From assembly GCF_058153355.1 (NCBI RefSeq), contig NZ_CM177019.1: a stretch of 64,000 nucleotides of DNA, one strand, 5' to 3'. Shown in pieces: positions 1,919 to 61,765 of this stretch. A program made the position numbers and the translations under genes. Numbering within the stretch: position 1 is the stretch's first letter; each line of letters starts with the position of its first letter. Under the pieces are notes generated by a model. It was given only the letters and a program-made list of their open reading frames with translations, was not told the origin of the DNA and did not search any database.

Positions 1919-5819
<3,901 letters not shown>

Positions 5820-5838
5820 TCATCAGGAGCAGTGAATT

Positions 5839-6112
<274 letters not shown>

Positions 6113-11684: not shown

Positions 11685-14589
<2,905 letters not shown>

Positions 14590-14773
14590 TCACAACCCGA
14601 AGATGTTTCACTTCTGATTGCGAAAATTTGAGAGACTCACGAACAACTTTCATTGTTCAGTGTTTCAATTTTCAGCTTGATCCAGATTTTTAAAGAGCAA
14701 ATATCTTAAACATGACTCGTAAGTCATCTTTAACGATATTAAGGTCGGCGACTTTCACTCACAAACCAGCAAG

Positions 14774-14849
14774 TGGCGTCCCCTAGGGGATTCGAACCCC
14801 TGTTACCGCCGTGAAAGGGCGGTGTCCTGGGCCTCTAGACGAAGGGGAC
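14774..14849 (-). tRNA. gltV: tRNA-Glu (UUC) in 16S-23S spacer
   Basis: Reverse complement gtccccttcgtctagaggcccaggacaccgccctttcacggcggtaacaggggttcgaatcccctaggggacgcca = tRNA-Glu. Confidence 0.95.
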
Positions 14850-14934
14850 GTATCAGTCTGCTTCGCAAGACGCCTTGCTTTTCACTTTCTATCAGACAAT
14901 CTGTGTGAGCACTGCAAAGAACAGTTCTTTAAGG

Positions 14935-16476
<1,542 letters not shown>

Positions 16477-28300: not shown

Positions 28301-28326
28301 CGCCCCGTTTGCGGGGCTAATTTCTT
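28301..28326 (+). terminator. putative terminator downstream of rsd
   Basis: cgccccgtttgcggggc hairpin followed by T-rich taatttctt. Confidence 0.5.
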
Positions 28327-28420
28327 GTCGGAGTGCCTTAACTGGCTGAGACCGTTTATTCGGGATCCGCGGAACCTGATCAGGCTAATACCTGCGAAGG
28401 GAACAAGAGTTAATCTGCTA
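28325..28420 (+). promoter_or_regulatory. TPP (THI-box) riboswitch in thiC leader
   Basis: ggctgagaccgtttattcgggatccgcggaacctgatcaggctaatacctgcgaagggaac contains the conserved CUGAGA and ACCUGAUC...GGGAA THI-box elements. Confidence 0.8.
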
Positions 28421-42682: not shown

Positions 42683-42713
42683 CAAAAAGGCTGGTGACTA
42701 AAAAGTCACCAGC
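42683..42713 (-). promoter_or_regulatory. rplL-rpoB intergenic transcriptional attenuator
   Basis: ggctggtgactaaaaagtcaccagcc hairpin with adjacent A-run on plus strand (U-run in minus-strand RNA) in the 319-nt rplL-rpoB spacer. Confidence 0.6.
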
Positions 42714-42753
42714 CATCAGCCTGATTTCTCAGGCTGCAACCGGAAGGGTTGGC

Positions 42754-53500: not shown

Positions 53501-56405
<2,905 letters not shown>

Positions 56406-56589
56406 TCACAACCCGAAGATGTTTCACTTCTGATTGCGAAAATTTGAGAGACTCACGAACAACTTTCATTGTTCAGTGTTTCAATTTTCAGCTTGATCCA
56501 GATTTTTAAAGAGCAAATATCTTAAACATGACTCGTAAGTCATCTTTAACGATATTAAGGTCGGCGACTTTCACTCACAAACCAGCAAG

Positions 56590-56665
56590 TGGCGTCCCCT
56601 AGGGGATTCGAACCCCTGTTACCGCCGTGAAAGGGCGGTGTCCTGGGCCTCTAGACGAAGGGGAC
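56590..56665 (-). tRNA. gltT: tRNA-Glu (UUC) in 16S-23S spacer
   Basis: Same tRNA-Glu sequence as at 14774..14849. Confidence 0.95.
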
Positions 56666-56836
56666 ACGAAAATTGCTTATCACGCGCTGCGTGATATTTT
56701 CGTGTAGGGTGAGCTTTCATTAATAGAAAGCGAACGGCCTTATTCTCTTCAGCCTCACTCCCAACGCGTAAACGCCTTGCTATTCACTTTTCATCAGACA
56801 ATCTGTGTGAGCACTGCAAAGAACAGTTCTTTAAGG

Positions 56837-58378
<1,542 letters not shown>

Positions 58379-58760
58379 AAAAGTTTGATGCTCAAAGAAT
58401 TAAACTTCGTAATGAATTACGTGTTCACTCTTGAGACTTGGTATTCATTTTTCGTCTTGCGACGTTAAGAATCCGTATCTTCGAGTGCCCACACAGATTG
58501 TCTGATAAATTGTTAAAGAGCAGTGCCGCTTCGCTTTTTCTCAGCGGCGCGGGGTGTGCATAATACGCTTTCCCGCTACAGAGTCAAGCATTTTTTTGCT
58601 TTTCTCTGTTGAGATTCTCAGGAGAACCCCGCTGACCCGGCGGCGTGTTTGCCGTTGTTCCGTGTCAGTGGTGGCGCATTATAGGGAGTTATTCCGGCCT
58701 GACAAGAGGAAATTTAAAATAATTTTCCAACCGCGCAACATTCAACCAAATCAGTCTAAA
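58379..58760 (-). promoter_or_regulatory. rrnB P1/P2 promoters, UP element and leader
   Basis: Minus-strand aaaattattttaaatttcctcTTGTCAggccggaataactcccTATAATgcgccacc (P1: -35 at 58710-58715, -10 at 58688-58693) and TTGACT...TATTATG (P2: -35 at 58582-58587, -10 at 58559-58565). Confidence 0.8.
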
Positions 58761-61397: not shown

Positions 61398-61637
61398 TGT
61401 AAAGCATCCACAATAGAAGAAGGATGCCGCAGGCTTCATCAATATTACGCGATGATGAGAACCAGATGCGACGTTAGCCGGCAGGTCTTCGGGCTTGGAG
61501 GGGTATATAAAATACTAAGAGATGATGACTTCCCACCGGATGGCAGTGTCCGCATAACGCAATCATCGCACCTTTCCTTACCGCTGCGCGTCAGCTCCAG
61601 ATTTGCACTGGATTCCCTATTAACTCACAGGACCGGC
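61398..61637 (-). promoter_or_regulatory. cobalamin (B12) riboswitch, btuB 240-nt leader
   Basis: Minus-strand leader begins gccggtcctgtgagttaatagggaatccagtgcaaatctggagctgacgcgcagcggtaaggaaaggtgcg..., matching the btuB leader as I recall it. Confidence 0.85.
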
Positions 61638-61765
61638 GAGTGGATGCTACAGGTTGTAACAAGTTGCTGTCCAGACGTAGCTCACAAATAGGAATACATC
61701 AAGATCTGGACATCTGATGAGCAATCCCTACAATCGCCGCGTACATTTCATTTTCAGGATACATC

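Follow-up and report, generated by a model that had tools for sequence, protein, structure and literature searches.

[quoted passage not shown]

Two rRNA operons in one Escherichia coli strain carry the same tRNA-Glu gene, but the spacer in front of it is twice as long in one operon as in the other. What is the additional sequence, does it mark its operon, and does it alter the maturation of the RNAs around it? The window (the whole stretch of 64,000 nucleotides that was analysed) contains two rRNA operons, both on the minus strand (Table 1). The operon with the long spacer is located downstream of trmA, the btuB cobalamin riboswitch, btuB and murI and is therefore rrnB, while the operon with the short spacer adjoins purH and is therefore rrnE. 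These neighbours agree with the operon names proposed in a sequence-only reading of this DNA, and the gene boundaries obtained with Rfam and ARAGORN reproduce its spacer lengths, 171 nt at rrnB and 85 nt at rrnE. Its statements that both operons carry the same tRNA-Glu and an identical tRNA-23S spacer were also borne out, since the two tRNA-Glu copies in the window are identical in the alignment and the 184-nt tRNA-23S spacers have 100% identity. The window DNA is from an E. coli other than K-12; its murI flank shares 99.6% identity with one genome and about 98.8% with the second best.

Table 1. Coordinates of the rRNA operon features, spacer alleles and predicted structures in the window
Feature	Coordinates	Strand	Basis
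23S rRNA, rrnE	11685-14589	-	Rfam
tRNA-Glu-23S spacer, 184 nt, rrnE	14590-14773	-	Rfam + ARAGORN boundaries
tRNA-Glu(UUC), gltV equivalent, rrnE	14774-14849	-	ARAGORN + Rfam
16S-tRNA-Glu spacer, short allele, 85 nt, rrnE	14850-14934	-	Rfam + ARAGORN boundaries
Short-allele-specific 20 nt, CTTGCGAAGCAGACTGATAC	14850-14869	-	BLAST break points at rrnE
16S rRNA, purH-linked operon (rrnE)	14935-16476	-	Rfam
23S rRNA, rrnB	53501-56405	-	Rfam
tRNA-Glu-23S spacer, 184 nt, rrnB	56406-56589	-	Rfam + ARAGORN boundaries
StyR-44 (RF01830) match, rrnB tRNA-23S spacer	56413-56511		Rfam
tRNA-Glu(UUC), gltT equivalent, rrnB	56590-56665	-	ARAGORN + Rfam tRNA
16S-tRNA-Glu spacer, long allele, 171 nt, rrnB	56666-56836	-	Rfam + ARAGORN boundaries
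Long-allele-specific 106-nt block (rsl-type)	56666-56771	-	megablast alignment ends in block-less genomes
Two-tier hairpin abutting tRNA-Glu	56666-56703	-	folding + inverted repeats + covariance model R1
Predicted three-way junction	56705-56763	-	RNAfold
16S-proximal 65 nt common to both alleles	56772-56836	-	alignment
Spacer strand of 16S processing stem, CAGTGCTCACACAGATTGTCTGAT	56793-56816	-	read from sequence
16S rRNA, murI-linked operon (rrnB)	56837-58378	-	Rfam SSU_rRNA_bacteria, 1578.9 bits

The two spacer alleles and their counterparts in K-12

The spacers of the two window operons share their 16S-proximal 65 nt, with 3 mismatches, and after this shared part their lengths stay unequal in the alignment, with 106 nt in the long allele in place of 20 nt in the short allele. 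The "extra ~86-nt segment" described earlier is correct as a net difference of 86 nt; instead of a simple insertion, however, the BLAST break points and the alignment point to a 106-for-20 nt replacement; the segment string that was quoted for it is the antisense (plus) strand and not the RNA sense. In E. coli genomes without the block, the megablast alignment breaks off exactly 106 nt short of the tRNA (query position 2629 of 2735), and in genomes with a different allele at rrnE it breaks off 20 nt short of the query end (position 2531 of 2551). An alternative and equally good alignment resolves the difference into three indels, namely 6 nt in a small 5' hairpin, a 42-nt block and a 38-nt hairpin, the last being a clean indel between UAC and tRNA position +1. 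The three-indel alignment is supported by Serratia liquefaciens, in which CUGAUAC directly precedes the hairpin as it directly precedes the tRNA in the E. coli short allele.

Extension of the comparison to the other operons of this type in K-12 MG1655 detected 171-nt spacers in rrnB and rrnG and 85-nt spacers in rrnC and rrnE. The window block is identical to the K-12 rrnB and rrnG blocks at 105 of 106 positions, the sole difference being A to G at spacer position 150, in the hairpin loop, and the complete long spacer of the window has 4 differences to K-12 rrnG and 8 to K-12 rrnB. The short spacer equals that of K-12 rrnE except for spacer positions 11-12, where K-12 has GC and both window operons have CT; the tRNA-23S spacer is 184 nt in the window and 193 nt in K-12 rrnB. 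K-12 rrnB has short-type bases at spacer positions 45, 46 and 55 joined to the long block and is therefore a recombinant; the sequence of this operon is said to be that of Brosius et al. from 1981.

The "ribosomal spacer loop" (rsl) of E. coli, like the window block, sits between 16S and tRNA-Glu and is carried by the long spacers of K-12 rrnB and rrnG, with rrnC and rrnE short. Harvey and coworkers reportedly described in 1988 a 106-nt rsl sequence that is replaced by 20 nt in rsl-negative operons, and these sizes agree with the BLAST break points detected here. The title of the same paper reportedly announces the loss of rsl from rrnB in a relA1 subline. This titled loss was not reproduced in the genome of DH10B, presumably a carrier of relA1, which retains a 171-nt spacer at rrnB; the DH10B rrnB region may come from another lineage. 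XL1-Blue, which we take to be a relA1 strain, has one block copy in a scrambled stretch of the assembly and was left out of the analysis. From the title and the sizes reported, the window block is probably this ribosomal spacer loop (Harvey, Hill, Squires & Squires 1988, J Bacteriol 170:1235). A later article cites the 1988 paper, as its reference 50, when it notes that the sequence variation of the seven operons is higher in their spacer regions (PMC4696680). Thus, the length polymorphism is already known since the 1980s, and the window spacers are very probably its classical long and short alleles, i.e., rsl presence and absence, a near-neutral leader variant spread between operons.

Distribution and movement between E. 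coli loci

The 106-nt block was detected in 2790 of 5426 complete E. coli genomes (51%), and its absence from the other 49% demonstrates that it is dispensable. Its copies occupy 4005-4006 places, all of them full-length and chromosomal (1-7 per genome, median 1), and every location that was fetched is an rrn spacer. The blastn search in distant mode, with E-values up to 10, found no diverged or partial block copies in the 5426 genomes and their plasmids.

The allele frequencies per locus come from 60 records for each locus, taken at even steps down the ranking with 59 usable rows, and they describe this sample rather than a full count. The murI-linked rrnB locus was long in 11 of the 59 (~19%) and short in 40, and an Ile/Ala spacer was assigned to the remaining 8 from the alignment break point, with one of them fetched (strain 2012C-4221). 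The purH-linked rrnE locus was short in 55 of 59 and of the Ile/Ala type in one (strain M1), and the alignments of three genomes end at the allele break point; one of these three, strain C21, was fetched and has the long spacer of 171 nt. The spacer state is strain-specific and not operon-specific. The suggestion that the additional segment could be used as an operon-specific marker is valid for rrnB versus rrnE within this strain, but it fails across strains, given the block frequency among the 5426 genomes, the minority of long alleles at rrnB and the long rrnE spacer of C21; spacer length separates the operons only within a given strain and is unsuitable as an "rrnB marker" across E. coli.

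Concerted evolution by gene conversion between rrn operons, with swaps of whole spacers, is known from Harvey & Hill (1990), as discussed in PMC8022953. The occurrence of alleles at varying loci and the swaps of whole spacers, including the Ile/Ala type, are what rrn gene conversion predicts, and the same features are seen here: the alleles are found at different loci depending on the strain, the 5' part of the K-12 rrnB spacer is recombinant, and Ile/Ala and Glu spacers exchange at both the murI and the purH loci. According to the textbook mechanism, the alleles would be copied between operons by homologous recombination through the flanking 16S and tRNA/23S identity, and the set of operons bearing the long allele would therefore vary by strain. 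Unlike the outcome of full homogenisation, one genome can carry long and short alleles together, and Escherichia, Providencia and Serratia have both, so that the dimorphism persists rather than being erased.

A predicted hairpin next to tRNA-Glu and its recurrence in other genera

The RNAfold MFE of the 106-nt block is -32.4 kcal/mol (z = -2.6), and in the predicted fold a three-way junction comes first and a two-tier hairpin second, the latter ending exactly at tRNA position -1. The predicted junction is formed by the outer helix UGGG-A-GUGA/UCAC-CCUA, the hairpin GGCU..GGCC and the hairpin GCUUUC-UAUUAAU-GAAAGC, and the GCTTTC/GAAAGC arms of the latter were confirmed by an inverted-repeat search. 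The two-tier hairpin has the lower stem ACGAAAA/UUUUCGU, the upper stem UAUCACGC/GCGUGAUA, the loop AGC and a 5-nt bulge, AGCAA, on the 3' side. The inverted repeat TATCACGC/GCGTGATA has 8-nt arms and a 3-nt loop (56678-56685 and 56689-56696), and it is enclosed by the 10-nt outer repeat ACACGAAAAT/ATTTTCGTGT (56664-56673 and 56696-56705), the outermost two base pairs of which involve tRNA nucleotides +1 and +2. The palindromic hairpin mentioned in the sequence-only reading is real, but its arms are those given above; the 9-mers proposed there, atcacgcgc/gcgcgtgat, are a single site, given once directly and once as its reverse complement. For the 44-nt hairpin region the predicted folding energy is -14.0 kcal/mol, compared with -5.1 +/- 2.1 kcal/mol for shuffled sequences (z = -4.3), and 0 of 200 shuffles were as good. 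The covariance model R1 matched 56656-56709 on the minus strand with 60.5 bits and had no second match within the window.

No Rfam 15 family matched the long spacer (56666-56836) at the gathering score or at E-values up to 10, and only the adjacent tRNA was matched. Among curated RNA families, StyR-44 alone falls in the E. coli Glu-type 16S-23S spacer; like the block, it is transcribed in the rrn precursor, but it is located downstream of the tRNA, is present in both operons and has an unrelated sequence.

Spacers of other genera were obtained from mis-filed chromosomes in the plasmid collection and by the rrnE-metA-aceBA synteny. We detected long spacers with a hairpin ending at -1 in Providencia rettgeri (138 nt), Yersinia (198 nt), Serratia symbiotica (189 nt), Serratia liquefaciens (145 nt) and two operons of Aeromonas caviae (280 and 226 nt), and short spacers in Providencia sp. 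(88 nt, at a locus syntenic with that of P. rettgeri L006), Proteus (84 nt), Dickeya (86 nt) and Serratia marcescens (87 nt). The metA synteny supplied the Yersinia (long), Dickeya and Serratia marcescens (short) spacers and three Ile/Ala operons; the murI-linked operon is of the Ile/Ala type in the fetched Salmonella and Cronobacter genomes and absent in Kosakonia. The short core GCGUCUUGCGAAGC(A/U)GAC is common to E. coli and Dickeya, with one base missing in the Proteus version, and this sharing across genera suggests that both alleles are old, each being present in several families of Enterobacterales.

Anchored on CACCTCCTTACCTTAAAGAA, with 145-175 nt and then the tRNA-Glu start, a genome scan had 0 matches; the same pattern does match the window, and its CACCTCCTTACCTTAAAGAA anchor is Escherichia-specific, the first 10 spacer bases being different in other genera. 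The scan for ATTTTCGT followed by the tRNA-Glu start retrieved only Providencia rettgeri and missed Serratia and Yersinia, because their tRNA-Glu begins with GTCCCCATCG. Two metagenome scans, the anchors of which were too specific, had no match, and one of two viral-contig scans gave a single E. coli-type short spacer of 85 nt, the other nothing. The ammonia-lyase gene adjoining the Providencia operon is accessory and gave one more Providencia genome; draft assemblies break at the rrn operon.

All instances of the hairpin have a lower stem, a 3'-side bulge, an upper stem and an end at -1, and the hairpin is usually preceded by UACAC. Compensatory changes were found in the lower stem (G-C to A-U in Yersinia, A-U to G-C in S. 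symbiotica), and the upper stems have unrelated sequences across genera with the pairing retained. In the model-guided alignment 83.8% of the cells pair, compared with 26-50% if the partners are slid by 1-3 columns, and both-side changes occur in 9 of 17 pairs, compared with 2-5 for the slid partners; both comparisons use six or seven independent lineages, the seventh instance being the second Aeromonas operon, and an alignment that is fitted to the model and leans towards the structure. The observed values were reached by 0 of 500 shuffles on four of the five measures and by 118 of 500 on the remaining one, further pair types. The covariation of the hairpin is suggestive of a conserved RNA structure. 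The three-way junction was not conserved in the fetched spacers of Providencia, Yersinia and Serratia, and in Providencia the stretch that separates the conserved motifs UGGGAG and UACACG is shorter and differs in sequence.

Possible roles in pre-tRNA-Glu processing and rival explanations

Spacer and rRNAs share one transcript, in which the 16S processing stem is the site of RNase III cleavage (the RNase III stem); RNase P frees the tRNA 5' end and the leader is discarded. Nucleotides 21-44 of the long spacer are complementary to the leader sequence ATCAGACAATCTGTGTGGGCACT at 58484-58506 on the minus strand, and CACACAGATTGTCTGAT is conserved in all fetched Enterobacterales spacers but the Plesiomonas plasmid copy, which has one base different; this conservation is explained by the place of CACACAGATTGTCTGAT in the established 16S processing stem. 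Following this textbook scheme, either allele would be transcribed inside the single rrn precursor, the first ~44 nt of the spacer would build the 16S processing stem together with the 16S leader, and the remainder up to the tRNA would be the 5' leader of pre-tRNA-Glu, removed by the RNase P cut at the tRNA 5' end. Since the leader is discarded, both alleles would give the same mature 16S rRNA and tRNA-Glu.

The candidate roles for the hairpin are the insulation of the tRNA from an upstream leader segment able to pair with its 3' end, or the shaping of the RNase P substrate. In the predicted MFE structure of the long leader with the tRNA, the hairpin is kept together with a cloverleaf-like tRNA fold, while in that of the short leader with the tRNA the leader segment GCAAGGCGUC pairs with the tRNA 3' end instead. 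A separate candidate, pairing of the leader with the tRNA 3' end and trailer, looked compensatory in three genera and was rejected, the duplex energies being no better than those of shuffled leaders. Structured 5' leaders of bacterial pre-tRNAs are generally known to affect RNase P cleavage, and the window hairpin is similar to them in ending at -1, in a predicted helix able to extend over tRNA +1 and +2, and in the U at -1 in 6 of 7 long-allele instances (G in the second Aeromonas operon). Unlike these leaders, the hairpin, described here from sequence and predicted folds, is optional, since the same tRNA is obtained from short alleles.

The earlier suggestion that the block may alter processing is plausible, since the hairpin adjoins the RNase P site and is seen again in other genera. 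A conserved hairpin speaks against pure neutrality, and the lack of the block in 49% of E. coli genomes speaks against an important function; the hairpin probably has a small cis role in the folding or processing of pre-tRNA-Glu. We detected no sigma-70-like promoter by scanning both the long and the short spacer. A promoter inside 16S transcribes the spacer and tRNA-Glu in stationary phase, and processing intermediates were found in RNase III and RNase G mutants (PMC5179076); the leader may matter for this stationary-phase transcript, too. A wider proposal, which we consider tentative and on balance unlikely, is that the two-tier hairpin, with its A/U-rich lower stem and its freely covarying upper stem, represents an ancient, uncatalogued cis-acting rrn element of Enterobacterales and Aeromonadales that would tune pre-tRNA-Glu folding or RNase P/RNase III processing and would be kept alongside the hairpin-less allele as a long-lived dimorphism not erased by gene conversion.

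Alternatively, the leader could be released as a trans-acting stable small RNA of ~138 nt, extending from the RNase III site to tRNA -1 with a hairpin-protected 3' end, similar to the sponge RNAs of tRNA operons. The block is predicted to be strongly structured, such a fragment would end in a stable hairpin, and the rrn-derived small RNAs rrA, rrB and rrF, located downstream of 5S, provide a precedent (PMC8144298). However, the K-12 RefSeq annotation has no feature between rrsB and gltT, no Rfam family matches, the three-way junction part is not conserved between genera and the block is dispensable in half of the E. coli genomes; we regard a small RNA as improbable.

An operon-specialised processing element fixed at rrnB, giving this operon distinct maturation kinetics or regulation, would fit the hairpin abutting the RNase P site, its 10-bp form that takes in tRNA +1 and +2, and the difference in the predicted pre-tRNA-Glu folding between the alleles. 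The distribution data largely refute it, as the block is located at rrnB in only ~19% of the sampled genomes, is found also at rrnE and at K-12 rrnG, and has no copy at all in 49% of genomes, which makes such specialisation very improbable.

The combination of an A-tract, a GC-rich stem-loop and a U-tract could also be read as an intrinsic terminator, most plausibly one stopping antisense transcription from the tRNA side: on the plus (antisense) strand TATCACGC-GCT-GCGTGATA followed by TTTTCGTGT scores as terminator-like, the single match in that scan, and in E. coli, Providencia and Yersinia the bulge is on the side that, read in antisense, brings a U-run immediately behind the stem. Nevertheless, 0.7 such sites are expected by chance in the region and the short allele gives an equivalent chance-level match, the Aeromonas and S. 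liquefaciens hairpins have no U-run directly after the stem in either direction, and the sense strand has 5 nt between the upper stem and the U-run. Sense transcription is antiterminated in rrn operons, which counts against a terminator as well, and no antisense transcript is known; we consider this function highly doubtful.

The discrete presence/absence polymorphism with palindromic content resembles the insertion of a small mobile or repetitive element (a MITE or a REP-like palindrome) in the rrnB spacer, and the alternative alignment with the 38-nt hairpin as a clean indel, in the CUGAUAC context of Serratia liquefaciens, would agree with this. Such an insertion is hardly credible, given that no other copies, diverged ones included, were found in the 5426 E. 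coli genomes or their plasmids, that no non-rrn sites were seen, and that other genera keep the lower stem with an upper stem of wholly different yet paired sequence; a replaced but paired upper stem on a conserved lower stem is the signature of a conserved RNA structure and not of the repeated insertion of one element. Finally, a degenerate second spacer tRNA gene, with the junction as an acceptor stem plus D-like and anticodon-like arms and no T arm, would be suggested by the 8-bp outer helix, the 4-bp stem with an 11-nt loop, the 6-bp stem with a 7-nt loop and the several tRNAs in this spacer in other Gammaproteobacteria (e.g., Glu-Lys-Ala-Val in Vibrio), but it is close to refuted and barely conceivable, since ARAGORN finds tRNA-Glu only, the Rfam tRNA model has no match in the block at E-values up to 10, the 7-nt loop UAUUAAU has no U at the equivalent of tRNA position 33, and the junction domain is not conserved in Providencia, Yersinia and Serratia.

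Taken together, this locus re-describes a known spacer length polymorphism, both alleles of which would yield the same mature RNAs, and 16S-23S spacer typing schemes will meet this polymorphism as intragenomic heterogeneity. The cross-genus conservation of the hairpin is a modest lead and an only mildly new feature. If it holds in a full survey, the hairpin would provide a small, easily testable case of an rRNA operon with a pre-tRNA leader structure that is conserved, and of two old alleles persisting despite concerted evolution.

Spacer tRNA type and chromosomal locus

A given chromosomal rrn locus has no fixed spacer tRNA type. We detected an Ile/Ala spacer at the murI ('rrnB') locus in E. 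coli 2012C-4221 and at the purH ('rrnE') locus in E. coli M1, and the murI-linked operon is of the Ile/Ala type in the fetched Salmonella and Cronobacter genomes. At the fetched Kosakonia murI locus, an rrn operon is absent after murI. The gene order rrnE-metA-aceB-aceA(-aceK) is common to Providencia, Moellerella, Xenorhabdus, Yersinia, Dickeya, Serratia, and Photorhabdus, where these loci vary in the spacer type and in the upstream neighbour; E. coli has the matching gene order.

RNA features in the window

The Rfam matches are collected in the table, together with the segments involved in the potential leader pairing and a terminator-like site. The StyR-44 family was also matched in Providencia operons, at a weaker score. 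On the antisense strand of the operon, the upper stem of the two-tier hairpin ending at tRNA-Glu position -1 is followed by TTTTCGTGT, which was scored as intrinsic-terminator-like in a scan with a chance expectation of 0.7 such sites in the surrounding region.

RNA features in the window and their coordinates
Feature	Coordinates	Strand	Location	Basis
StyR-44 (RF01830)	56413-56511; 14597-14695		both tRNA-Glu-23S spacers	Rfam, 108 bits each
naRNA4 (RF02564), three tandem matches	5838-6098	minus		Rfam
Cobalamin riboswitch	61463-61652		ahead of btuB	Rfam, gathering score
TPP riboswitch	28319-28419			Rfam, gathering score
Pseudomonas P26 sRNA family match	42688-42749			Rfam, gathering score
Terminator-like site	56678-56705	plus		terminator scan
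Leader segment AGCAAGGCGUC	56772-56783; 14870-14881		spacer	
Partner of leader segment	~56580-56596; ~14764-14780		tRNA-Glu 3' end and trailer	

Anomalous database records

Several PLSDB 'plasmids', NZ_AP026896.1, NZ_OL790812.1, and CP125156.1 among them, have the size of a chromosome, with 4-7 rrn operons (for instance, Aeromonas caviae 'pKAM479_3' at 4.94 Mb, Proteus mirabilis at 4.09 Mb, and Klebsiella pneumoniae at 5.37 Mb); these rrn-carrying records are evidently mis-filed chromosomes. The E. coli XL1-Blue assembly (NZ_CP081007.1) has its sole copy of the 106-nt block, the segment specific to the long spacer allele, within the region 4653586-4660692, surrounded by mixed RHS and ISAs1 pseudogene fragments and two tRNA-Glu genes, with intact rRNA genes absent, an arrangement that looks like an assembly artefact. 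E. coli-type rrn spacers (Glu, 85 nt; Ile, 68 nt) were found in the viral-filed IMG/VR contig UViG_651053022_000007 (minus strand, ~875-1045). At its Glu spacer, 16S is reduced to the last ~18 nt and the preceding stretch is unlike 16S, suggesting a chimeric or rearranged contig.

Leader pairing and lineage-specific bases

The 3' end of tRNA-Glu with the first trailer bases (GACGCC-A-CUUGCU) is complementary to the segment AGCAAG-GCGUC of the leader, the spacer upstream of the tRNA. The Providencia counterpart is GCAAU-GGC with GCC-A-AUUGC, and that of Dickeya is AGUCA..GCGUCUU with GGGGACGC..UGACU; the pairing appears to be kept in both genera by two-sided changes. In duplex energy, however, the real leaders showed no gain over shuffled ones.

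Spacer positions 11-12 (56825-56826 and 14923-14924) are CT in both window operons and GC in the other fetched E. coli spacers of 171 and 85 nt. In the leaders, the window has GAGCATC against GAGCGTC in K-12 rrnB. Such a lineage-specific change, common to two operons 42 kb apart, fits with concerted evolution.
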